Shown here one piece after another: positions 551 through 12,647 of a stretch of DNA of 64,000 bases. A program made the translations under genes and the position numbers. Position 1 is the stretch's first letter; every line of letters begins with the position of its first letter. Source of the stretch: Promethearchaeota archaeon (GTDB taxonomy: Archaea; Asgardarchaeota; Lokiarchaeia; Sigyniarchaeales; SOKP01). Location: NCBI GenBank assembly GCA_048938895.1, contig JBHLLU010000009.1, positions 1 through 64,000 of the forward strand. The letters are read 5' to 3'. The notes under the pieces are model-generated. The model was not told where the DNA came from and did no database searches. It saw nothing but the letters and a program-made list of their open reading frames with translations.

Positions 551-1378
551 ATGAAATTATATAAAATAAATAATAGAGGAGAATTAATTCAATTAGACAA
601 ACTGAACTTTGATGAAAATGATGTTTATCTTGTTGATGATGAACAAAAAAACACGATCTACATCTGGGTTGGTTTAAAAGTACGACAAGAAACAAAGGAT
701 ATTACAGCAGAAATAGCACGGCGATTAGATAAAGACCGTGGGGGCTCAACAAAGATCCTTATCATGAAAGAGAAACGTGAATATGGATCATTCTTAGCAA
801 TGATGCATAATTTAGAAAAAGGTTTAATCCCGGGAGTTTCAATTGAAAGAAGACCAGAATTCGTATTTGAAGTCTCTCCTGAGAAAATAGAGTCTGTAAA
901 ACTAGATGGGACTCCAGAGGAGCGAAAAATTACTGTTGAAGAAAGAATTGTTGAATGGTTTAAACAAATTAAAGACTATAGGAAAGAAGTGCCAAAAGAA
1001 GAAGTTAAACCGGTTAAATTTATAAAAATTGAAAAAGCTCCGATCCAACAACAATTAATTGTTACTACTAAAGCTGAAGAACCTAAACCACAGGAGGAGG
1101 TAGTTGAAGAAGAAGTAGACTTTGAAACACAAATTAGGGAAGCAGCATATTTCCTTTCTTTGAACAAATATTCCTACAACGATTTATGTTGGATGTTAGC
1201 AGAAAAAATTCAGAAAATGAGCCTTGAGATGCCCTCTATTGAAGATATAAAGCGCAAAGCTGAGGAAGTCTTTCGGTCATCATGTAGTTATGATGAATTA
1301 TGTTGGTTAAATGCTGAATTGGATCTTTTAATTAAAAAAAGTTACCTACCAGAAAAAAAGGAAAAAAGCTATTTTTAG
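551..1378 (+). CDS. Gelsolin-domain protein with C-terminal tandem helical (DUF2934-like) repeats
   Basis: N-terminus FDENDVYLVDD..TIYIWVG..ARRLD..E..SF is a gelsolin-repeat signature. C-terminus has two IRxAAY/IKxKAE...LCWxxAE repeats. SD GGTGAG upstream. Confidence 0.8.
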   Translation: MKLYKINNRGELIQLDKLNFDENDVYLVDDEQKNTIYIWVGLKVRQETKDITAEIARRLDKDRGGSTKILIMKEKREYGSFLAMMHNLEKGLIPGVSIERRPEFVFEVSPEKIESVKLDGTPEERKITVEERIVEWFKQIKDYRKEVPKEEVKPVKFIKIEKAPIQQQLIVTTKAEEPKPQEEVVEEEVDFETQIREAAYFLSLNKYSYNDLCWMLAEKIQKMSLEMPSIEDIKRKAEEVFRSSCSYDELCWLNAELDLLIKKSYLPEKKEKSYF

Positions 1379-1483: not shown

Positions 1484-3694
1484 TTGTATTTTCGCCGTAA
1501 TTTAAGGCAAAAATGTAGGATAATAATAATCATAACTTTTATTTTAGGGGCGTTTGTTTGTATACGTTCGCTACTTAATCCAGTTTTACAAAGTGAAAAT
1601 GATCAAAACTTTAAGAACCTGAAAAATAGTTCGCAAGAGATTAATATAACTTCTCCCGAAAATATTACATATTATAAACCTATGAGCGGATTTTTTCCCG
1701 CGACATATGGATTTGAGAATGATGAGGTTGGTACTATACCAGAAGAATGGGATGATTATAAAGAAGATTCCCTTATGATTAATGAAATAATTAATGAATT
1801 AGATGGTCATAAGAAAGTCATTCATATGGATAAAGGAGATACTTTTGGTATTAATAACAATTTGTGTCAAAATTTTAGCTCTGTACAACAATATGGAACT
1901 ATTGAATTTTGGGCAAGGACTACCGATGTCAATCAGGAAAGTTCATGGCATATGAAAAGCGGTACTTTCAATCAATATTCAATCGCAGGTATAAGGATTA
2001 TGGAAAGTAATTTCCAAATTAAAAATACTACCACAACTTGGTATCCTGTGTCTTATACTGCATATAATAATCATTGGTATCATATAAAAATCCAATTTGA
2101 GTGTGGGACTGGAAATCATTATGGATTAACTCAGTATAATTGGAGACTTTTTATTAATAATAACCAATTCGGGGATTTCAATATGATTTCATCACAATCA
2201 AATGTTTCACATTTTTTAATCCATCAAAATTGGCGATATTATAATTTTGAAATGTATACAGATGCAATTGGGTATTCTTGGGATCCTAATTATAATGTGG
2301 GAGACAATATGGATGAAGGATTGTTATTAAGTTTTGAACAAAAGACTGCTTTAGATTGGATTGGTTATTCTCTGGATGAACAATCCAACAAGACAATAAT
2401 AGGAAATACTACTCTTCCAATGCCTTCAAATGGCTATCATAATGTTCAAATTTTTGGCAATAATACCATTGGTGAACTATTTGAATCTGGTAAAACCCAT
2501 TTTTCAGTTGAATATGTAACCATTAATCTACTCACTCCAGAAAATACAACATATACTGAACCGATGAGAGGTTATTATCCAGCTACATACGGATTTGAGA
2601 ATGATAAAGATGGAACAATACCACAGGAATGGAATTATCGACTGACAATACCTCCACAGGACTCATATATTAAAGTAATATCCTCATTAGATGGGCATAA
2701 TAAGGTTGTTGATTTGAATAAGGGAGACACTTTCGGTAATCATTTACATTTTTATCATTATTTTTCAGCTCAAACCCACGGAACAATCGAATTCTGGTTA
2801 AGGACAACGGATGTAAATGAAGGTTCAGTCTTTAGTATTATGGAAGGAAACACTACGGCGGGAGGAATTTCTATAGGAGCTGATTTTTTTGACTCATACT
2901 TTTCGATTTACACTATAGGTGGTTGGCAATCAATATCTCATTCTGCGGTTAACGATAAATGGTATCATATATCCTTTCAATTTGAATGTGGGACAGGGAA
3001 TCATTATGGATTGGATCAGAATTATTTTAAAGTCTATATTGATGGAATCAAATATGGGGATTATAAATTTTCCAATGTGGTACCAAATGTAAATAGATCA
3101 TATTTCCTTCAAAATTGGAGGTATGATAATTATCACACATATATTGACGCTATAGGATATTCCTGGGATCCAAATTATGATATTGGAAATAATTTGAATG
3201 AAGGTCTTTTACTTACTTTTACTAATTCCTCAACTTTAGATTGGATAGGATATTCCTTAAATAATCAAGTGAATCAGACTATTATAGGAAACCAAGTTAT
3301 TCCAATGCCTGAAAAGGGATTTTATAAAATACAAATACATGGTATATCTACTTCTGGGCATTATTATTCATCAAATTTAGTATATTTCACAATTGATACA
3401 AGGGAAAAATCTCAAAATGGTGTAAATAATATTTTCATACTTATTTTCATTGTATTTGGTATTTTTTCATTAGTAGGACTAATTATGGTTATTGTTGTTT
3501 ATAAAAAGGTACATACCTCATTAAGAGAACCTATCCATTTAAAACCGAAAGTTAAAAAAATAAAACCCGAGAAGAGGGGTATTATAGAAGAGGAACTATT
3601 TTGCCCATTTTGCAATGCACCCATTACATATCAACAGAAATTTTGTAAGTATTGTGGTAGTAACTTAAAAAAAGGTGAAGAACCGGATATCTAG
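1484..3694 (+). CDS. Cell-surface single-pass membrane protein with two tandem beta-sandwich (lectin/LamG-like) modules and a C-terminal zinc ribbon
   Basis: N-terminal hydrophobic segment. Internal duplication (PATYGFEND...GTIEFW.RTTDVN...FECGTGNHYGL...DAIGYSWDPNY, twice). TM helix near aa 652-675, then CPFC..CKYC. Confidence 0.75.
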   Translation: MYFRRNLRQKCRIIIIITFILGAFVCIRSLLNPVLQSENDQNFKNLKNSSQEINITSPENITYYKPMSGFFPATYGFENDEVGTIPEEWDDYKEDSLMINEIINELDGHKKVIHMDKGDTFGINNNLCQNFSSVQQYGTIEFWARTTDVNQESSWHMKSGTFNQYSIAGIRIMESNFQIKNTTTTWYPVSYTAYNNHWYHIKIQFECGTGNHYGLTQYNWRLFINNNQFGDFNMISSQSNVSHFLIHQNWRYYNFEMYTDAIGYSWDPNYNVGDNMDEGLLLSFEQKTALDWIGYSLDEQSNKTIIGNTTLPMPSNGYHNVQIFGNNTIGELFESGKTHFSVEYVTINLLTPENTTYTEPMRGYYPATYGFENDKDGTIPQEWNYRLTIPPQDSYIKVISSLDGHNKVVDLNKGDTFGNHLHFYHYFSAQTHGTIEFWLRTTDVNEGSVFSIMEGNTTAGGISIGADFFDSYFSIYTIGGWQSISHSAVNDKWYHISFQFECGTGNHYGLDQNYFKVYIDGIKYGDYKFSNVVPNVNRSYFLQNWRYDNYHTYIDAIGYSWDPNYDIGNNLNEGLLLTFTNSSTLDWIGYSLNNQVNQTIIGNQVIPMPEKGFYKIQIHGISTSGHYYSSNLVYFTIDTREKSQNGVNNIFILIFIVFGIFSLVGLIMVIVVYKKVHTSLREPIHLKPKVKKIKPEKRGIIEEELFCPFCNAPITYQQKFCKYCGSNLKKGEEPDI

Positions 3695-3727: not shown

Positions 3728-4033
3728 TTAACCACAACAGGTATTACCTTGAGGATTTTTAGAACGGGCGCGAGCATCCCACAAACAACCGCATCCTTTA
3801 CGTTCTTGGAGGATTATGGCCATTGCAGGACAGTTTCTTTTACAAGCACTACATTCAGTACATCTCTCAACATCTATAATCTTGAATTTTCCATTATTAG
3901 TTGATTGTGGAATCCCAAATGGGCAAACTTCTGCACAGACACCACACCCTGTGCATAATTCTTGGTCAATGGAAATTTTAGGTAAATTTATTGTTATATT
4001 TATTGAAGCTGGTTTTAAGACGATACTTGCCAC
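3728..4033 (-). CDS. HgcB-like 2x[4Fe-4S] ferredoxin with a Cys-rich tail
   Basis: CTGCGVCAEVCP and CTECSACKRNCP motifs, then GCGC and terminal TCCG. Lies directly downstream of the hgcA-like gene. True start may be ATC at 4024 after SD AGGAGGTG. Confidence 0.85.
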   Translation of the reverse strand: MASIVLKPASINITINLPKISIDQELCTGCGVCAEVCPFGIPQSTNNGKFKIIDVERCTECSACKRNCPAMAIILQERKGCGCLWDARARSKNPQGNTCCG

Positions 4034-4095
4034 CTCCTAATTTTCAAATCTCTAATTAAATAATGTTTTTTATTATATATATGCTATCCTATTAT

Positions 4096-5775
4096 TTAGA
4101 ATAAGATAAATCCTATACCTGCACAAATCAAACCTATGACTAATAATGGTAGATTAATTTTTATGAAAGTTGGATATTCTTCCTGAATTTCAGCAGGACT
4201 TGTTGCCATTGAATATCCACTAAAACTCATTGTAAAGAAGAAAGCAAGCCAGAAATAGAATACGATATTCCATAAACTTACTAATAGTGAATCATGGATA
4301 AACCATGTTAAACTTCCTAAAATAACTATATTCAGTATTCCATATATTAATCCTTTTTTAATAAAACACCGCGTGAAGTTAGTTAACGGAAACAAGAAGG
4401 CAATTAAAGCATTTGTAAGAATTATCCAAAGCCAAATCTCACCAACTCTCCAAAATTTATCAAGCCAAAAGGGATTTAAGAAACTGACACATAGGAGGAG
4501 TAATAATACTCCGAGAGTTGGCTTAAGAAAGATTTTTCGTAATAGAAATGTAGTATGAGTCATGAATGCTCGTAATCGATGTGAAATTGTAAATTTTGCA
4601 AGCTTCCATTTATCTGGTTTTTTTGCTGGACGCTCTTCTATATATTGGGGTAAAAATTTTGCCCACACAGGTCCATAGAGGATGTTAAAAGGGAAGTTTG
4701 GAGATTCACTTTTAATTAAAGGGGCAGCAACACCCCCTGCTGAGAGTTGGGGCAAAATAAGTGTCTTTCTAGTTGTTCTATCACTAATTCCCGTAGCCTC
4801 GATAGCTTCGATAAGTTGTTTATTCCCAAAATTGTCTCCACGTGCCGCACACCATACATTGATACCTTTTGAATCTACACATAACACCCAAGCATCCATT
4901 CCTTTAAGTGCTCGCATAACCCTTATGTATGTATAAGAATAATTTGCTGTTACTATTATTGGAGACTTATCATCTGGATTTCCAGATTGATAGATTCCTG
5001 GTTCAATGGGAACATGATCGATTTGCCCTGTAAAAATACATCTATAGATCTGCATTTGACTTCTAAATCCTTTGAATTTTCTTGAGGGTGGTCGATAATA
5101 TCCCGGTCCATCCCAACCTAATATATCGAATTTTTCTAATTCAAGAGCTCTTATTGAACCATGTCTCCATTCTTTTTCATTAGAGATCTTGAATCCAATA
5201 GACTCTATGTAGTTAAAAAACCATTTCACAAGAGATGTGGGTGGTAATCGTAATCTTCTTAATTTTTTCTTATACCACCATCGCTTTATTTTAAATACAA
5301 TTTTCCAAAATCCTGAAGGTAGAAATTCGGCACCAATAATTACCTTCCCTTTTGGTTTTAAAATTTTCCAAGCATTTCTAAGGAAGATTTGTTGTTCTAA
5401 TGGCCCGAGTTCCGAAAGCATGAAAGTACTCACAATATAATCCTTAGACTCTTCTTCAGCAGGTAATTCTCTGATCGATCCAATTTGATAAATTAATTTT
5501 ATATCCTTCTCTTTCGGATAATTTTTCATAGCATTGTTAATCATTAGAAAATTCTTATCGATTGCTAAAACATCATTTCCTTTTAGTGCTAAATTAGCAG
5601 CTAGTGTCCCTGTACCACAACCAACCTCTAGTATAGATTTTGACGTTCCAATTCTTTCACTAATCCATTCTTTGACTCTTTGATTAACACCCTTGGTTAA
5701 CGCAGTGAATTTTTCATCATATGACTCTGGTTCTTGTTCTAACTTTCTCATAAAGGTTACAGCGATTTTGATCAC
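4096..5775 (-). CDS. Class I SAM methyltransferase fused to an HgcA-like corrinoid-binding membrane protein
   Basis: ILEVGCGTG motif I (MTase about aa 1-215). Then IEPGIY.SGNPDDKSPIIVTANY...GINVWCAARGDNFG...LILPQLSAGGV...YGPVWA (HgcA/CdhE-type corrinoid domain) and about 5 TM helices ending MSFSGYSMATS. Confidence 0.85.
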   Translation of the reverse strand: MIKIAVTFMRKLEQEPESYDEKFTALTKGVNQRVKEWISERIGTSKSILEVGCGTGTLAANLALKGNDVLAIDKNFLMINNAMKNYPKEKDIKLIYQIGSIRELPAEEESKDYIVSTFMLSELGPLEQQIFLRNAWKILKPKGKVIIGAEFLPSGFWKIVFKIKRWWYKKKLRRLRLPPTSLVKWFFNYIESIGFKISNEKEWRHGSIRALELEKFDILGWDGPGYYRPPSRKFKGFRSQMQIYRCIFTGQIDHVPIEPGIYQSGNPDDKSPIIVTANYSYTYIRVMRALKGMDAWVLCVDSKGINVWCAARGDNFGNKQLIEAIEATGISDRTTRKTLILPQLSAGGVAAPLIKSESPNFPFNILYGPVWAKFLPQYIEERPAKKPDKWKLAKFTISHRLRAFMTHTTFLLRKIFLKPTLGVLLLLLCVSFLNPFWLDKFWRVGEIWLWIILTNALIAFLFPLTNFTRCFIKKGLIYGILNIVILGSLTWFIHDSLLVSLWNIVFYFWLAFFFTMSFSGYSMATSPAEIQEEYPTFIKINLPLLVIGLICAGIGFILF

Positions 5776-6575: not shown

Positions 6576-8825
6576 TTATCTTTTCGGTTGAAATATCTTT
6601 TTCTCTATTAATTTAAGAACTGTTTCAGCATCCCTTATTTGAAAGCCCTTTCTAGCGTAGAGTAAATAGGAAAGGAAGAAATAATCTGTTTTTCTCATTT
6701 TCATCACTTCTTCGGCTCTAGTGATTAAAGCTTTCTCATCAGAGGAGACTTTTACATCCTGAGGTTTTAGTTCTAATGGGTAAAGTAATGAAGTCTCTAA
6801 GTGTTTATCGAGTAAATCTTTGATATCTTGAAATTTCGAAGTATTTCCTTTAAAGTTAGCTAAATCATCACCATGTATTTCATCAATGTCATAGGACAAA
6901 AATTTTATGGAATCTAAAAAGTCCTGAGAAGGATTTTCCTTCATTATAAGTAAAATTCTAAAATCTTTAAACTCAGACATAATAATTTTTGATTGTTGAT
7001 ATTCGAGCTTTATTGTTTGAGATTGTTGATTAGCATCTGTTAATTCTATACCAAAATTTCGAATTGCTTCTAAAAACCCTGTAATAAGGGAAGCATCAAT
7101 GTCTTTTCCTGCAAGCATCTCTTCATAAATATTTAGCCCTGTTCTTTTTTCAATGATGATGAAATAATCCAAGTTTAAAACATCCATGTATTTATTGTAA
7201 ATTCTTTTTCTATGCTCTTGATGTACTCGTTTAGATCTTTTAACAAGTTTATAAGTTGTGAAGCTAGCACTTGCTAAAATAATTGAACCTACGACTATTA
7301 TCATAATATAGAGTGGATCTAATACAAAAGGTACATTAATTTGGAAAGATTTGGATATAATTCCTGCTTCTTCACCATTAAACCAATAAATATAAGCCCA
7401 ATATATTCCTTCATTTGGATTAGCAGATAATTCATATGAAAGCACAATTTCAGTCGTAGTTGTAGAGGTGATTTCTATATTCTCCCTATATTCCTCAAAC
7501 CCTAATGAGTTTATTAATATATAAGTGAGATTCCCCGGATTAATTGGTGGTAAAACAGAGAATAATAAATCTTGGTTTGGTTCAAATTTAGTTTTTGGAG
7601 TATTCAAGGACATAGCTATATTTGGGGAGTTACAAGAAATTTCCCACAAAGCACCATCAACTATAACATCATTCAGAAACAATAAGTAATCATCTAAAGT
7701 GTTAATTGTAATATTTGAAGTAATATCCAATCCATTTCTCCTTACTGTAAAATTATACCATGAACTAGGATAACTAAATTTTACTGTGTAATTTTCACAA
7801 ATCACATTTAAATCAGGTCTAAGTGTCCATCTATTTTCTGTATTAGGCTTTAGTTTAGCTTCTCCATCGGTAAAGAAATTATTGAACAAGCCAATATGAT
7901 AACTTAAGTTGAAAATTAAACCAATAGAAAGATTATTACCAATGTTAACAGTAAAGCTAGTAGCATTTGGTGCAATTATTTCATTAATTGTAAGGCTTCC
8001 TGTTCCATCCTCAGGTCCATCCACGATTGGATAAGTGGATCCATTAAATTGAGCCGTCATATTTATCTTTTCAGGATTGAATGATTTATTAACTCGTTGT
8101 ATTAACTTATATAATAGTGGTTTACCAACATCATCTAGTTCCCAAATATCATCATAAACTGCGGTATGTAGACTAGTATGAATAGATCCACTCCCGTTAT
8201 ATATCCAATTATAGGTTGATCTATCAGTAGGGAGAACTAATTCCGTACCATTTAATACTAAATAATAACTTCCTGTTGTAAGAGAGACTTCCTCCTCAAA
8301 CATCTGTAAATGCCACCCGGGAGAGGATATATTTATTAAGGTTGAAGTAAGTATGTTTTCATCAGGTATATCATTACCTATATCATATCCTTGTATTTGC
8401 ATATACACTGGTAAGACAGGAGTTCCTGTTATGTAGCCATAAATGTAAACACCAAAAATAATTGTTGGTTCAGTTATACTAATCTCTACTCCATACCCTA
8501 ATTTTCCTTTTGCATCTACAATGTCAATAGATTTCCCACGATCTTCGATCGTTTTAGTTTCTTCCCCTAATTTAATATCAGTGATGTTCATCTCTATATT
8601 TTGAATATTCCAAGTCTCTGTAGGTACTGATATGTCAATTGTACTTACGCTAGTGCTGTTTCCGATGTCTTCCGTAAATTCTGTCATTTGAAATTTGGAG
8701 GTTAGAGGTATAATCTTCTCATTACCTTGAGCATAAGATAAATCAATAAACTGATTAATACTAAAAATCAAAACTGAAACAAATAAAATGCTAAATGTCA
8801 GAAAAAAATGATTTTTATTTTTCAT
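6576..8825 (-). CDS. Single-pass membrane protein with large extracellular beta-rich region and cytoplasmic longin-like domain
   Basis: Signal peptide and TM near aa 503-525. Cytoplasmic IIIEKRTGLNIY...LITGFLEAIRNFGIE...F.GNTSKF pattern. Paralog of the adjacent ORF. Confidence 0.7.
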   Translation of the reverse strand: MKNKNHFFLTFSILFVSVLIFSINQFIDLSYAQGNEKIIPLTSKFQMTEFTEDIGNSTSVSTIDISVPTETWNIQNIEMNITDIKLGEETKTIEDRGKSIDIVDAKGKLGYGVEISITEPTIIFGVYIYGYITGTPVLPVYMQIQGYDIGNDIPDENILTSTLINISSPGWHLQMFEEEVSLTTGSYYLVLNGTELVLPTDRSTYNWIYNGSGSIHTSLHTAVYDDIWELDDVGKPLLYKLIQRVNKSFNPEKINMTAQFNGSTYPIVDGPEDGTGSLTINEIIAPNATSFTVNIGNNLSIGLIFNLSYHIGLFNNFFTDGEAKLKPNTENRWTLRPDLNVICENYTVKFSYPSSWYNFTVRRNGLDITSNITINTLDDYLLFLNDVIVDGALWEISCNSPNIAMSLNTPKTKFEPNQDLLFSVLPPINPGNLTYILINSLGFEEYRENIEITSTTTTEIVLSYELSANPNEGIYWAYIYWFNGEEAGIISKSFQINVPFVLDPLYIMIIVVGSIILASASFTTYKLVKRSKRVHQEHRKRIYNKYMDVLNLDYFIIIEKRTGLNIYEEMLAGKDIDASLITGFLEAIRNFGIELTDANQQSQTIKLEYQQSKIIMSEFKDFRILLIMKENPSQDFLDSIKFLSYDIDEIHGDDLANFKGNTSKFQDIKDLLDKHLETSLLYPLELKPQDVKVSSDEKALITRAEEVMKMRKTDYFFLSYLLYARKGFQIRDAETVLKLIEKKIFQPKR

Positions 8826-8925: not shown

Positions 8926-11190
8926 TTAAATCAATAGAAAAATTTTCTTTTCTATTAAGTCAAGTAGTGCTTCCACATCTTTCGGATTACATTCTTTTTC
9001 AGATAATAGGGCTTTTATAAGAAAATTATCTCTATTATTCATTTTCATCAATGAAACCGCTTTATTGATAAACTCCCTTTCATTCTGCGTTACTTTTAGT
9101 TTTGCAAGTTTTTCAATTTTAGCTATTTTCATTGGATATATGAAAGTAATATTTAAATTCTGCTTAAGTAAGGCTTCAATTGACTGAAACGGTTTCACAT
9201 CCCCGTTAAAGGAATCAATATTTTCTCCAAAATTTTTATAAATATTGTAGGCTAGTTCTTCAATTGAGTATAAGAAAAATCTCGAAGGGGTTTCATGCAT
9301 TATCAAAATTAATCTAATATTAACAAATTCAGTCATTAAGATGATGCGTTCTCTGTATTCTAACTTTATTGTTTGTGATTGATCCTCAACTTTGATTAAT
9401 TCTATACCAAAAGAGTGAATTGCCTGTAAAAATCCTGAAATTAACGCAGCATCGATTTCTTCCTCTGAAAAATTTTGGGTATAAACATTTAAGCCAGATT
9501 TTTTATCGGTGACCATTAAATACTCAAGGTTTAAGATGTCAATACATGAATCATAGAGTTTTTGCTTTTTCTCTAATTGGACATCTCGGAATTTTTTTAC
9601 ATATCGATATGAAATTAATCCTACTGTTACTATTCCTAATGTACCAATTACTATAAGAATAACCATCCATGGTTCTATTGTAAAGGGAACAGAAATTTTA
9701 AAATCCTTACTACTCATCCCAATGTCGGTATGATTGTTCCAGAATACCTCTGCGATATATTTTCCTTCTGTCCAATTTGATGGGATCTCATATGAGAAAA
9801 AATTTGGTGGTGAAAAACAATCTTCTGGAGGGATTAATTCTGGTTTCTTACTTTGTTTTATTATTATAAAAGTATAATTACCTTGAGTTGGAGGAGGAGT
9901 AAAAGAATATTCTAGCTCATCTCCTCTCATCCATTTTGTTTTTGTAATGTCTATATCTAAGTCGATAATTGGAGAATAAGCTTTAATCTGCCATTCAGCT
10001 CCAGCCTCTATAGTGCCATTGGGAATAGTAATAATTCTATTAAAAATGTTAAAATTTACTAATGAAGTTACGTTTTCCATATTTCTATATATATTAATAT
10101 TATACCAGTTTCTTGGAATCTCAAATTGTAGGGAGTAGTTTTGGGTAACCCTATTGAATATTGGCTCCATCGTCCAAAGAACTTGAGATTCTTCGATTTT
10201 TGCATTATTATTAGTTATGAATGAATTTCTTAATTTAACTGAATAATTATAATTAAATTGTAAGGGTGCTGTTCTATTAATTATGAGAGGAAGAACCAGA
10301 GTTACTGCTTCCTGAAAAAAAATATGGTCAATTATTTTCAAAAATCCAATTCCAACGCTTAATCCATCAGTTATTTCATAATTTTCTCCTTTAATTTCAG
10401 CAGTCATGTTCAGGTCTGATGGGAAAAAATTTCCAACAACTTTCTGGTGTATTTTGTACAAAAAACTTGAATTAAAAACTCCTGTACTCCAAGAAGTCTG
10501 ATAGGATGATGTGTGTAAATATGGAATTGTTGGATTAAAGTTATCTATTTGCCAATAATACTTCGCATCAACGTTTACTGGCAAATTCGTTCCATTCATT
10601 ACTAATGAATAATTTCCGATTGAAAGTATAATTGGATCTAAAGAAAAATCTTGATAATACCAATCCAAATTAAGAGATATATTCAAATCTATGGATCTTA
10701 AAATAGTATTATTAGGGTTATGAGTTCCTTCGGTGAATCCCTGTATTTGAAATTTAATCGTTTCATTTGCTTGAGGAGTCTTTTGTCCTCTGATAAAAAT
10801 GCCAAATATTTCAGTAGGTTCTAAAATTTCAAGTTGCGTAGCTAAGGCAAATGTTCTAATTGAAGGGTTTTTATTGATTACTGGAATCTGGTCCGTGCTC
10901 GTGTCTTCAATCGTTTTAATTTCTTTGCCCAATTCTATATCGTTAAAATTAATGTTTATATCTGTAACGGTCCAATTTTCTTCTGGTAATTGAATATTTA
11001 TCCCACTGGCATTTGATTTTAAACCTTCTACTTCAGAATATTCATTAAATTCTAAATTTGAAGAAAAGGAAATAGGTTCCCCATTAATTTGGCCATAAGA
11101 GGATGGAGTGAAATAAAGTATACTAAAATTAAGAAACATAAAAGTGAGTAAGGCAACTAATCCATTTTTAAATTTAATATTCGTTATCAA
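8926..11190 (-). CDS. Paralogous single-pass membrane protein with cytoplasmic longin-like domain
   Basis: Same architecture. Shares LG.E.KTIED, YLVLNGT/YSLVMNGT, NMTA, SGLNVY...LISGFLQAIHSFGIE and QSQTIKLEY with 6576..8825. Confidence 0.7.
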   Translation of the reverse strand: MITNIKFKNGLVALLTFMFLNFSILYFTPSSYGQINGEPISFSSNLEFNEYSEVEGLKSNASGINIQLPEENWTVTDININFNDIELGKEIKTIEDTSTDQIPVINKNPSIRTFALATQLEILEPTEIFGIFIRGQKTPQANETIKFQIQGFTEGTHNPNNTILRSIDLNISLNLDWYYQDFSLDPIILSIGNYSLVMNGTNLPVNVDAKYYWQIDNFNPTIPYLHTSSYQTSWSTGVFNSSFLYKIHQKVVGNFFPSDLNMTAEIKGENYEITDGLSVGIGFLKIIDHIFFQEAVTLVLPLIINRTAPLQFNYNYSVKLRNSFITNNNAKIEESQVLWTMEPIFNRVTQNYSLQFEIPRNWYNINIYRNMENVTSLVNFNIFNRIITIPNGTIEAGAEWQIKAYSPIIDLDIDITKTKWMRGDELEYSFTPPPTQGNYTFIIIKQSKKPELIPPEDCFSPPNFFSYEIPSNWTEGKYIAEVFWNNHTDIGMSSKDFKISVPFTIEPWMVILIVIGTLGIVTVGLISYRYVKKFRDVQLEKKQKLYDSCIDILNLEYLMVTDKKSGLNVYTQNFSEEEIDAALISGFLQAIHSFGIELIKVEDQSQTIKLEYRERIILMTEFVNIRLILIMHETPSRFFLYSIEELAYNIYKNFGENIDSFNGDVKPFQSIEALLKQNLNITFIYPMKIAKIEKLAKLKVTQNEREFINKAVSLMKMNNRDNFLIKALLSEKECNPKDVEALLDLIEKKIFLLI

Positions 11191-11369: not shown

Positions 11370-12647
11370 ATGGAAAATTTGGATCTTAATGATTTTCGCG
11401 ATTATATAGGAATGTTTCCACCCCGGTCATTTGCAGATCAGACATGTTATTTTATTTCTGGGTTTGCTAATTCTGGTGTATTTGAGACGACGGAAGGACT
11501 AGTAATATTTGATCTCCCAATCCGCCAATTAGAAATGAGGATGTTTACTAACTTACGAAAATTTACAAATAAACCAGTTAAATATTTTGTCTTTTCACAT
11601 GGTCATTTTGATCATGCTTTTGGATATCTCCCATTTTTAGAGGAAATTAAAGAGAAAGGTTGGGAATTACCTGAAGTCATAGCTCATGAAAATTGTATTC
11701 AACGGTTCAAAAAATATCAAATGTTAGATAAATATCATGACTGGATTAACAAAATGCAATTTGCTTCTATTAGAGGAAGAGCACAAGCAGCTGTTGTATC
11801 CCCGCAAAACATTCTTCAACCAACAATCATTCTAAAAGGGAATGAAGATTGTTATAAGTTTCGATTGGGTAATACAAATTTTGAATTATATCATAATAAA
11901 GGAGAAACTGATGATTCGATTTGGTTGTGGGTACCTGAAAAGAAAACTATCTGTGCGGGTGATTTAATGATTAATTCATTTCCTAATGTGGGAAATCCTT
12001 ACAAAGTTCAAAGATATCCTAACGATTGGGCTTTAGCATTAGATAAAATGATGGAGAAAAAGGCGGAGTATATAGTTCCTGGTCATGGAAAGTTAATTGA
12101 AGGGAAAGAAAACGTGAAGGAAGCGTTGCAGACTACTTCTGAGGCAATGCATTTTGTTCATGATGAAGTTGTTAAAAGGATGAATGAGGGAAAGTGGTTC
12201 GAAGAAATTTTTCATGAAATGGTAGCAATTCAACCACCCAAATTTAAAGAAAACCCATATTTAAGAGAAATATATGGATGCTACCGCTTTGCAATTCATG
12301 CCACTTATAGACTTTACCATGGTTGGTATAATAGTGGAAATCCAACTGATTTATTCCCATCAAAATCAGAATATATTGCTCGAGAGTTCTTAAAGATTAA
12401 TAAAGCAGAGGATTATTATGAGCACGCTAAGAACCTTTATAGTGATGGAAAATTTCAATTAGCCCTCCATGTTCTCGATGTTGTAATTAAAGGAAATGAA
12501 GATAAGAGTTCTATGGTATTTCAAGAAGCTCTAAAATTAAAAATCAGGATCTTAAAGAAGAAATCGAAAGAGGAATCTTCGTTTATAGCTTCAAATATTA
12601 TCAACAATGCAGTTTCAGATCTTAAAGAAAAGTTGAGAGAATTATAA
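11370..12647 (+). CDS. MBL-fold hydrolase, alkyl sulfatase (SdsA1/BDS1-like) with dimerisation domain
   Basis: SHGHFDH motif, GETDD, GDL..FPNVGNP, PGHG, YHGWY.GNP. Confidence 0.85.
   Translation: MENLDLNDFRDYIGMFPPRSFADQTCYFISGFANSGVFETTEGLVIFDLPIRQLEMRMFTNLRKFTNKPVKYFVFSHGHFDHAFGYLPFLEEIKEKGWELPEVIAHENCIQRFKKYQMLDKYHDWINKMQFASIRGRAQAAVVSPQNILQPTIILKGNEDCYKFRLGNTNFELYHNKGETDDSIWLWVPEKKTICAGDLMINSFPNVGNPYKVQRYPNDWALALDKMMEKKAEYIVPGHGKLIEGKENVKEALQTTSEAMHFVHDEVVKRMNEGKWFEEIFHEMVAIQPPKFKENPYLREIYGCYRFAIHATYRLYHGWYNSGNPTDLFPSKSEYIAREFLKINKAEDYYEHAKNLYSDGKFQLALHVLDVVIKGNEDKSSMVFQEALKLKIRILKKKSKEESSFIASNIINNAVSDLKEKLREL

Follow-up and report, generated by a model that had tools for sequence, protein, structure and literature searches.

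What the native function of HgcAB-type proteins is, and for what reason they are retained by microbes, has been asked for a long time. The question arises again with two adjacent genes in a 64,000-nucleotide stretch of DNA (the window) from a Promethearchaeota archaeon (assembly GCA_048938895.1, contig JBHLLU010000009.1, positions 1 to 64,000), one fusing an S-adenosylmethionine (SAM)-dependent methyltransferase (MTase) to an HgcA-like corrinoid protein with a membrane domain, the other encoding an HgcB-like ferredoxin. Does this pair form a single methyl-transfer machine, and what would it methylate? The answer preferred here, with a probability of about 0.55, is that the two genes would encode a methyl-transfer machine of the HgcAB type, bound to the membrane, working with three cofactors and equipped with a SAM domain of its own, and that its acceptor would most likely be a soft metal or metalloid. 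The strongest evidence that the three modules work as one machine is their occurrence in alternative fusion orders. The two genes are:

4096..5775, minus strand: fusion gene, MTase::HgcA-like corrinoid::membrane domain (open reading frame, Pfam, NCBIfam and AlphaFold2)
3728..4033, minus strand: HgcB-like 2x[4Fe-4S] ferredoxin, 101 amino acids (NF040864 as best family)

Architecture of the fusion protein

Translation from the GTG at 5775 gives a fusion protein of 559 amino acids (aa), and use of the ATG at 5751 gives 551 aa, the length of most fusion homologues; the ferredoxin open reading frame (ORF) lies 62 nt downstream of the fusion ORF. Both ORFs and the gap between them are as described in the original prediction, which had been made from the letters of the window. 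Its observation is confirmed and its interpretation is supported, in that the identity claims hold; we infer, as it did, that SAM would load the corrinoid and that the substrate would be other than mercury (Hg). The fusion protein is divided as follows:

5131..5751, minus strand: class I SAM MTase domain, CpaM-like, residues 9–215 (NF043040, Rossmann fold in AlphaFold2, Foldseek)
5608..5631, minus strand: SAM motif I LEVGCGTG, residues 49–56 (G52, G54 and G56 invariant in 68 aligned members)
5011..5130, minus strand: MTase-corrinoid linker, residues 216–255, with a helix at 237–249 (AlphaFold2 secondary structure)
4591..5010, minus strand: corrinoid-binding domain of the HgcA/corrinoid iron-sulfur protein (CFeSP) type, residues 256–395 (PF03599, NF040863, NF043039, PDB, Foldseek)
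4837..4860, minus strand: cap helix NVWCAARG with the putative Co ligand Cys309 (N306, W308, C309 and A311 invariant in 68 sequences)
4099..4590, minus strand: membrane domain of five long helices, residues 396–559 (AlphaFold2/DSSP; alignment with HgcA)
4174..4230, minus strand: conserved C-terminal motif MSFSGYSMATSPAEIQEEY, residues 516–534 (alignment with the HgcA consensus; G520 invariant; in the predicted ferredoxin interface)

The class I SAM MTase proposed for the N-terminus was recovered by Pfam as Methyltransf_25/11 at residues 48–147 (Methyltransf_25, 56 bits). A resemblance to corrinoid-protein-associated MTases had also been suggested, and CpaM (NF043040) proved to be the best NCBIfam match by far: it reaches 136.7 bits over residues 7–213 and profile positions 3–214 of 216, the next family having 46 bits, but stays below its cutoff of 180. 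Like CpaM, the domain has intact class I SAM-binding motifs in a Rossmann fold and an HgcA-like corrinoid neighbour, attached here by covalent fusion. Conservation was read from 68 family members (23–91% identity), in which D73 and D112 are conserved in at least 90% and E122 is invariant; in class I MTases, residues in the position of D73 and D112 usually contact the ribose and the adenine of SAM.

The corrinoid domain is matched by Pfam CdhD (PF03599) at residues 241–346 (55.4 bits, cutoff 24.8) and by the CFeSP large subunit in the PDB at residues 243–385 (E 2.7e-9), while residues 255–551 match the HgcAB-like model NF043039 (175.2 bits) and the HgcA model NF040863 (170.4 bits, to position 318 of 325). 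The top Foldseek match, 9a0b_A (E 9e-13, TMt 0.59, 26% identity), is the deposited computed HgcA model of Cooper et al. and the sole HgcA entry among the Foldseek matches; a PDB search with the fusion protein turned up no experimental HgcAB structure. The motifs quoted in the original prediction (EPGIY, SP..VTANY, LILPQL and YGPV) are all present and align with a GK-motif HgcA-type consensus derived from 78 sequences, four of which were checked and all four pass the HgcA model; NVWCAARG was located exactly where it had been placed. Further residues invariant in the 68 sequences are P342, L344, G348, G368, R400 and G520.

The AlphaFold2 (AF2) model of the whole fusion, built with the 68 family sequences, has a mean predicted local distance difference test score (pLDDT) of 92.6 and a predicted template modelling score (pTM) of 0.88. 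It lays out the MTase to about residue 215, the linker helix at 237–249, the corrinoid domain at 260–395 and five long helices within 397–558 (397–433, 435–460, 471–494, 504–521 and 527–558 by DSSP), in agreement with the roughly five membrane helices expected beforehand. The high pTM would imply a defined, fixed arrangement of the domains. The membrane domain aligns with the GK-motif HgcA group through 'P..R.F..KG' and through its C-terminal motif, whose likeness to the end of HgcA had been noted and which aligns with the consensus 'a.nfTG..t..Ts.sGv..E'.

Alternative fusion orders of the three modules

The same genome holds a second set of these modules, divided at another point:

83247–85006 of contig C83 (776–2535 of locus L001): genuine CpaM and HgcAB-like pair, on the contig of the fusion but outside the window, about 78 kb away

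The stand-alone CpaM has 223 aa and 250.7 bits, and its stop overlaps the start of the 363-aa HgcAB-like protein (372.5 bits), both scores lying over the respective cutoffs. Two paralogous systems of MTase, corrinoid protein and ferredoxin, fused at different points, are thus present in this one genome. The fusion is 34% identical to this CpaM over 166 aa and 41% identical to the HgcAB-like protein over 145 aa. In all, four arrangements of the three modules were found: (i) a separate MTase beside a corrinoid-ferredoxin fusion, as in L001; (ii) an MTase-corrinoid fusion beside a separate ferredoxin, as in the window; (iii) a triple fusion; and (iv) a bacterial MTase-corrinoid fusion with a short ferredoxin. 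The triple fusions (596–601 aa; L042 2783–4573, minus strand, and L043 3000–4805, plus strand) come from a distant family of the same phylum and end straight after the second cluster, without a Cys tail; the cap helix of L043 reads NVWCAACGGDF. When 193 sequences were classified with our own domain hidden Markov models (HMMs), 47 were MTase-corrinoid, 9 MTase-corrinoid-ferredoxin, 17 corrinoid-ferredoxin and 118 corrinoid only.

Distribution and reality of the fusion

A word-indexed search in which 8000 candidates were scored gave 533 homologues at E<=0.001. The best 120 of these share 62–91% identity, and 119 of the 120 carry both the MTase and PF03599, the exception being a 482-aa fragment; as judged from these sequences, the fusion is therefore far beyond chance. 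Where NCBI gives the homologues a name, it is only 'methyltransferase domain-containing protein'. Their named sources are Promethearchaeota/Lokiarchaeota and Thor-, Hod-, Heimdall- and Hermodarchaeota, and named records contain the full-length fusion in Promethearchaeota, Hermod-, Hod- and Thorarchaeota. Within the phylum, 205 of 400 genomes match the fusion at E<=1e-20, those that do so solely through the HgcAB-like paralogue being included; 108 of the 134 genomes of the window's own family are among them, and strong full-length matches occur in 96 of the 134 (our own count from the table). Three distant families show co-linear matches over residues 4–558 at 31–37% identity, with frames of 547–601 aa. 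An exhaustive HMMER scan of 1.84 billion representatives returned 2313 matches at E<=0.001 and 63 at E<=1e-30, and full-length fusions at 25–31% identity are present in the bacterial groups Chloroflexota/Anaerolineae, Poribacteria and Zixibacteria.

An origin of the fusion as an assembly artefact was ruled out by the intact full-length frames in many genomes and named metagenome-assembled genomes, together with an independent contig that bridges the junction. This contig, from another study (X5 record 20, window 5005–5437), crosses the MTase-corrinoid junction without indel or joint and stems from a relative that differs at 38 of 433 bases. Only portions of the stretch are covered by X6 and by parts of X5, and an 8704-base contig of X1 spans the whole of it near-identically, may be its source and was therefore not counted as independent. 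None of the 17 public runs listed is RNA, so they have no bearing on expression. Single internal stops were seen in three of the listed genome matches, the large majority of frames being intact. The possibility, raised in the original prediction, that the fusion is unique to this assembly is thereby removed, as it occurs in many independent assemblies.

The bacterial fusions at loci L092–L109 have full-length frames of 501–569 aa, plus one 404-aa frame at a contig end, at 25–32% identity. They are mostly followed by a short ferredoxin of 79–105 aa, none of which ends in Cys-Cys. Their cap helices are of the NVWCAAGGG(Y/F)(F/L) type; the cap helix of L095 is of the GK type (NVWCSAGKGNF), although this protein is placed outside the HgcA clade.

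The ferredoxin as partner of the fusion

Four cysteine features distinguish the ferredoxin:

3920..3955, minus strand: first CxxCxxCxxxCP motif, C27–P38, with invariant cysteines
3827..3862, minus strand: second CxxCxxCxxxCP motif, C58–P69, with invariant cysteines
3785..3796, minus strand: GCGC, G80–C83, positional counterpart of HgcB Cys73 (invariant in 27 sequences; in the predicted interface)
3734..3739, minus strand: C-terminal Cys-Cys, C99–C100, counterpart of HgcB Cys94/Cys95 (C100 invariant, C99 conserved in at least 90%)

The protein matches 4Fe-4S families in Pfam, and its best family is HgcB (NF040864) with 56.3 bits, under the 99-bit cutoff. In Cooper et al. 2020 (PMC7305189), HgcB is defined by a pair of CxxCxxCxxxCP motifs, by a Cys that is strictly conserved some 12 residues beyond the second of them and by cysteines at the C-terminus; in the same account Cys73 is essential and Cys94/95 are needed for 95% of activity. 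Each feature of the definition as worded there is present in the window ferredoxin, which bears out the HgcB hallmarks first noticed: both cluster motifs are complete, C81/C83 sit 12–14 residues past P69, and the chain carries the C-terminal Cys pair. As with HgcB, the gene lies directly downstream of that of the corrinoid protein. The eight cluster cysteines, G80-C81-G82-C83 and C100 are invariant among 27 aligned ferredoxin homologues, and the C-terminal Cys-Cys is kept in distant Asgard families.

The survey of Asgard genomes for synteny of fusion and ferredoxin that had been proposed with the original prediction was carried out on 50 loci, 30 from the window's genus and 20 distant ones picked for spread and not at random. 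In 45 of them the next gene downstream, on the same strand, encodes a homologous ferredoxin, and in 2 the ferredoxin is fused to the C-terminus; one locus is without a ferredoxin within 1.5 kb, and two further contigs end too early to tell. The ferredoxin is thus adjacent or fused in 47 of the 48 loci with enough flank and is an obligate partner of the fusion. Some named loci come from the same genomes as the genome-search loci (e.g. L089 = L041), so that the two sets are not independent.

A predicted complex of fusion residues 236–559 with the ferredoxin gave ipSAE values of 0.69, 0.70 and 0.69, while the best of three controls stayed at 0.00. Among solved pairs, 58 of 80 attain the mark applied to this score, and among mismatched pairs 2 of 110; these counts hold only roughly here because our own alignments were supplied. 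The runs agree in at least 92% of contacts, with a partner pLDDT of at least 76. On the fusion side, the predicted interface consists of the cap helix (308–314), the PQLSAGG loop (343–353) and the C-terminal motif (516–537), and on the ferredoxin side of the cluster motifs and residues 76–91, including GCGC at 80–83. The modelling supports a putative binding of the ferredoxin to both the corrinoid and the membrane domains of the fusion.

Position in the HgcA superfamily

All curated scores stayed under their cutoffs (CpaM 180, HgcAB-like 285, HgcA 275, CdhE 306 and HgcB 99 bits). The fusion shares with HgcA the cap-helix cysteine in its NVWC context (Cys93 of ND132) and the five-helix C-terminal membrane domain, but it reads CAARG where HgcA continues CA(A/G)GK, scores 170.4 against 275 bits (passing proteins score 397–469 bits) and is placed outside the HgcA clade. 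Against the HgcAB-like model it scores 175.2 of the required 285 bits, compared with 372.5 for the genome's real member, and its ferredoxin is encoded by a separate gene rather than fused C-terminally. CdhE (NF003195) gives 70.4 bits, over profile positions 308–446 only of 450. The claim of an HgcA-type corrinoid domain stands, the HgcA and HgcAB-like scores of 170–175 bits being far above the 70 bits of CdhE, with the qualification that the protein is not HgcA proper and belongs to a distinct clade. When the C-terminal 291 aa were searched alone, identity dropped from at least 41% (family fragments) to about 35% (all others), the latter group including proteins that pass the HgcA model at 397–469 bits. 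The cap helix also sorts by group, reading NVWCA(A/S)GKGTF in GK-motif HgcA, NVWC(G/A)(A/S)CG(D/G)DF in HgcAB-like proteins and NVWCAARG..F in the window clade, which includes the Thor-type ARG(I/T)HF and the third-family ARGDKF (hereafter, the ARG clade).

The most careful tree was inferred from 79 rows and 285 columns under LG+C20 PMSF with CdhE as outgroup. CdhE was split off at 100/100, and the grouping with CdhE/CdhD that the original prediction had named as a point to check is not seen. Canonical HgcA was recovered at 100/100, the ARG clade at 98/87 and, within it, an 11-row Promethearchaeota-type subclade with the window protein at 100/100. A group at 100/96 unites the HgcAB-like, triple-fusion and Chloroflexota sequences; the ARG clade joins it at 86/87 and has four other MTase fusions as nearest neighbours. 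The bootstrap of this tree had not settled (correlation 0.969). A quick tree of the corrinoid domain also placed the ARG clade on the HgcAB-like side (82), whereas a quick tree including the membrane domain, with 79 rows picked for balance, placed it outside an 86-supported group of HgcA and HgcAB-like proteins. The quick tree of the corrinoid domain contained 36 GK-motif sequences (4 anchors and 32 drawn at random from those of at least 320 aa), and domains with incomplete HMM cover were dropped. Fusions to an MTase occur on most of the deep branches, among them the ones closest to canonical HgcA (Zixibacteria and Poribacteria lineages); the order of these branches is unsupported (24/69, 28/39). 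Because the bootstrap was unsettled and a quick tree gave another deep order, the safe statement from these alignments is that the window clade is a distinct lineage, neither HgcA nor CdhE, and probably lies on the HgcAB-like side. Lin et al. 2023 (PMC10083202) report Thor and Loki sequences in the fused-HgcAB subtree, in agreement with the tree obtained here; according to the same source, the first 327 alignment columns were trimmed, which may have held the MTase domain.

Two identities were accordingly rejected: CdhE/CdhD, by 70 against 306 bits and the 100/100 split, and orthology to HgcA, by the sub-cutoff score and the place outside the HgcA clade. The genome's third PF03599 protein is CdhE (470 bits, over the 306-bit cutoff). 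A profile search found no HgcA above the curated cutoff in the window's genome, and HgcA above cutoff occurs in 1 of the 400 phylum genomes. This sole HgcA (L064; G397:C110:1082-2017) scores 436 bits; its origin is uncertain because the genome is listed with 9% contamination.

Regulators in related loci

Besides the ferredoxin, only regulators recur as conserved neighbours in the 50 loci. An ArsR-family gene (PF01022, 57 and 36 bits), whose product has a CVCE motif and a Cys-rich N-terminus, is found upstream in nine of them, and in three Thorarchaeota-type loci it lies 3–4 bp upstream on the same strand:

L037 4745–5137, minus strand: same-strand ArsR gene, Thorarchaeota type
L040 4716–5117, minus strand: same-strand ArsR gene, Thorarchaeota type
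L041 2649–3041, plus strand: same-strand ArsR gene, Thorarchaeota type
L017, L018, L023, L044, L049 and L052: further ArsR loci, those of Promethearchaeota type being divergent at 1–2 kb

A pattern scan of named Thorarchaeota loci, partly from the same genomes, found a matching ORF of 129–133 aa upstream in five of six. In 15 of the 30 loci from the window's genus (15 of 50 overall), a MarR-family gene (PF01047, 64 bits; e.g. L012 689–1153, plus strand) precedes the fusion on its own strand at a distance of 311–1192 bp; its product has an N-terminal CC motif and an internal NGCCP motif. The Cys-rich ArsR and MarR regulators of some relatives may be taken as a hint at a metal(loid).

Proposed mechanism and alternatives

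In the proposed mechanism, the HgcB-like ferredoxin would dock on the corrinoid and membrane domains and reduce the cobalt to Co(I). The fused CpaM-like MTase would bind SAM and give its methyl group to Co(I), producing methyl-Co(III) with Cys309 as the lower ligand. The methyl group would then pass to a thiophilic acceptor held by C81/C83 and C99/C100 of the ferredoxin at the membrane surface, and this acceptor would most likely be an ion of a soft metal or metalloid. What we infer in this scheme is which way the methyl group flows, that the corrinoid is Cys-on, and what kind of acceptor receives the methyl group. The retained HgcB cysteines and the thiol-rich ArsR/MarR neighbours favour a soft metal(loid), though not strongly. 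Purified canonical HgcAB is reported to take its methyl group from SAM, not from methyl-tetrahydrofolate, via Cys-ligated methylcob(III)alamin (Zheng et al. 2024, PMC11588087), and the reading in which SAM loads the corrinoid is now more plausible for that reason.

Several points weigh against this mechanism. Function cannot be transferred by orthology, because all four curated models are under cutoff. The fused HgcAB of P. furiosus, a member of the wider branch, does not methylate Hg according to Podar 2015, as cited in PMC10083202. Moreover, since canonical HgcAB uses SAM without an MTase domain, the fused MTase would not be strictly needed for cobalt loading and may do otherwise. Two further points bear at the same time on an organic acceptor in or at the membrane (a lipid, a quinone or another hydrophobic metabolite or protein), to which the corrinoid would relay the SAM methyl group at an unreactive carbon, in the manner of TsrM. 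One is that the best Foldseek match of the MTase part is the phospholipid methyltransferase 8ys9, a phosphatidylethanolamine N-methyltransferase (TMt 0.77, followed by many class I MTases), which is compatible with such an acceptor; the secondary NCBIfam matches point the same way, being the quinone MTases UbiE/UbiG/MenG and, for the genome's stand-alone CpaM, the lipid MTase PmtA. The other is that the window locus has neither an ArsR nor a MarR gene nearby, so that the hint at a metal(loid) comes from relatives only. The predicted embedding of the module in the membrane and a basic, aromatic helix in the AF2 model of the MTase domain (157–174) would suit an organic acceptor as well, and matches in about half of the sampled Asgard genomes (E<=1e-20, paralogue-only genomes included) would fit a housekeeping role. 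Such an acceptor nevertheless leaves unexplained the four extra conserved cysteines of the ferredoxin in the predicted interface, as well as the ArsR (CVCE) and Cys-rich MarR neighbours, and no lipid or quinone biosynthesis gene is linked to the fusion in the 50 loci. It is considered unlikely, if the least so of the alternatives.

A true mercury methylase, performing the HgcAB reaction from SAM through Co to Hg(II), would make Asgard archaea cryptic producers of methylmercury. It would account for the cap-helix Cys, for the membrane domain with its C-terminal motif and for the complete HgcB cysteine hallmarks, all of which are kept here, whereas the genome's HgcAB-like protein and the triple fusions are without those ferredoxin cysteines. 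SAM is the reported donor of HgcAB (PMC11588087), and one survey is on record as counting Asgardarchaeota among putative methylators (PMC12484752). The reading is made distinctly improbable by the 170 bits against an HgcA cutoff of 275, by a cap helix with CAARG instead of the CAAGK of the GK-motif HgcA group, and by a position outside the HgcA clade (100/100), on an HgcAB-like branch whose tested member reportedly does not methylate Hg.

The MTase could also be a repair module only, using SAM and a ferredoxin electron to re-methylate oxidised Co(II) while another donor, such as a methylated pterin, serves catalysis. The combination of SAM domain, electron donor and corrinoid would mirror, by analogy, the reactivation of methionine synthase (MetH), in which SAM plus an electron donor re-methylates oxidised cobalamin, and methyl-pterins should be available because the genome has the Wood-Ljungdahl corrinoid protein CdhE (470 bits). 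The MTase of the fusion, however, has a class I Rossmann fold, from which the fold of the MetH activation domain differs, and no pterin-type (TIM-barrel) methyltransferase is linked to the fusion in the 50 loci. Nor did methyl-tetrahydrofolate serve canonical HgcAB in the experiments reported in PMC11588087, in which SAM did, and a role in repair alone has little to recommend it. A degenerate or non-catalytic relic of an hgcAB-like system, which the sub-cutoff scores of all family models might suggest, is hardly credible given intact frames in the large majority of matches, cofactor motifs invariant over 23–91% identity and synteny kept across classes.

Other genes of the window

The pair stands alone between a convergent gene for a 736-aa protein and a divergent gene for a 203-aa membrane protein without a family. 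Features noted around it are:

551–1378, plus strand: 275-aa protein with a gelsolin repeat (PF00626, 29.8 bits), which is a cytoskeletal signature of eukaryote-like character, as is typical of Asgard archaea
1484–3694, plus strand: the 736-aa protein convergent to the ferredoxin, with an internal duplication and a hint of a C-terminal zinc ribbon
6576–8825 and 8926–11190, both minus strand: two apparently paralogous proteins of about 750 aa without a Pfam family, each with a signal-like N-terminus, a large region rich in N-glycosylation sequons, one membrane helix and a conserved cytoplasmic tail
11370–12647, plus strand: metallo-beta-lactamase fold with an alkyl-sulfatase dimerisation domain (PF00753, PF14863)

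Implications and comparison with known systems

The identification of SAM as methyl donor of HgcAB dates, as reported, only from 2024 (PMC11588087). The present family supports a SAM-to-cobalt route in the superfamily independently, from genomic data, in that an MTase is fused to a corrinoid protein in several gene orders. As the pair is common, compact and directly testable, being a two-gene system that can be expressed and assayed, it should be of solid interest to the fields of mercury methylation and Asgard biology. With an above-cutoff HgcA in 1 of 400 Asgard genomes and matches to the fusion in about half of them (E<=1e-20, paralogue-only genomes included), loose hgcA searches in sediments may count proteins that possibly act on another substrate. 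Should a metal(loid) prove to be the acceptor, a lineage that abounds in sediments would have to be added to those that cycle methylated toxic elements. A wider picture can be sketched, tentative and on the whole doubtful, in which the partnership with a SAM MTase would be ancestral to the whole HgcA superfamily, the Asgard clade would be a dedicated membrane methylase passing methyl groups from SAM through cobalamin to a metal(loid) under ArsR-type control, in anoxic sediments Asgard archaea would be a widespread source of methylated metal(loid)s that has been overlooked, and canonical Hg methylation would be a derived branch that lost its separate SAM domain.

The NCBIfam models probably derive from Haft & Gwadz 2023. 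In the main texts of the literature searched on CpaM, HgcAB-like proteins, fused hgcAB with a methyltransferase and hgcA in Asgard archaea, no description of the fusion was found.

Among known systems, HgcA/HgcB (NF040863/NF040864; Pseudodesulfovibrio mercurii ND132) resembles the window pair in its cap-helix Cys within NVWC, its five-helix membrane domain and its homologous C-terminal motif, as well as in the 2x[4Fe-4S] ferredoxin encoded downstream, which has a Cys some 12 residues past the second motif and a pair of cysteines at the C-terminus. The two systems are further alike in that the ferredoxin is predicted to touch both domains, SAM is implicated as methyl source and ArsR-type regulators stand near some loci. 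It differs in that the window fusion has a 215-aa N-terminal SAM MTase, CAARG in place of CAAGK, about 35% identity and a clade of its own, and in that the window ferredoxin has GCGC with two cysteines where HgcB is described with the single strictly conserved Cys73 (PMC7305189).

The CpaM and HgcAB-like pair (NF043040 and NF043039), which includes the fused HgcAB of P. furiosus, has the same three modules and falls on the same wide branch (86/87). Its fusion point is permuted relative to the window, with MTase separate from corrinoid-ferredoxin instead of MTase-corrinoid separate from ferredoxin. The window membrane domain extends to position 318 of 325 in the HgcA profile, the HgcAB-like one only to 268; the window ferredoxin keeps GCGC and the Cys-Cys end, which the HgcAB-like tail is without, and the cap helices read CAARG and C(G/A)(A/S)CG, respectively. 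The CFeSP large subunit CdhE (NF003195; PDB 9fzy, 2h9a and 4c1n) shares a homologous Rossmann-like corrinoid domain with a cap helix. Unlike CdhE, the fusion is without the N-terminal [4Fe-4S] and TIM-barrel parts (the match covers chain residues 310–450 only) and has the cap-helix Cys, the membrane domain and the fused MTase.

In TsrM-type SAM methylases and MetH reactivation the electron donors are iron-sulfur or flavodoxin. These systems offer an analogy, as discussed in PMC11588087, in that a SAM methyl group would pass to cob(I)alamin and on to an acceptor. Their folds are unrelated, and in place of a radical SAM domain the window protein has a class I Rossmann MTase together with a putative Cys-on corrinoid and a membrane domain. 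Taken with these comparisons, the kinds of module are already known, and NCBIfam curators already link CpaM with HgcAB-like proteins; what sets this arrangement apart is the permuted fusion, the full HgcA-like membrane domain, the separate, Cys-tailed HgcB-like ferredoxin, and the ARG cap helix with a clade of its own.

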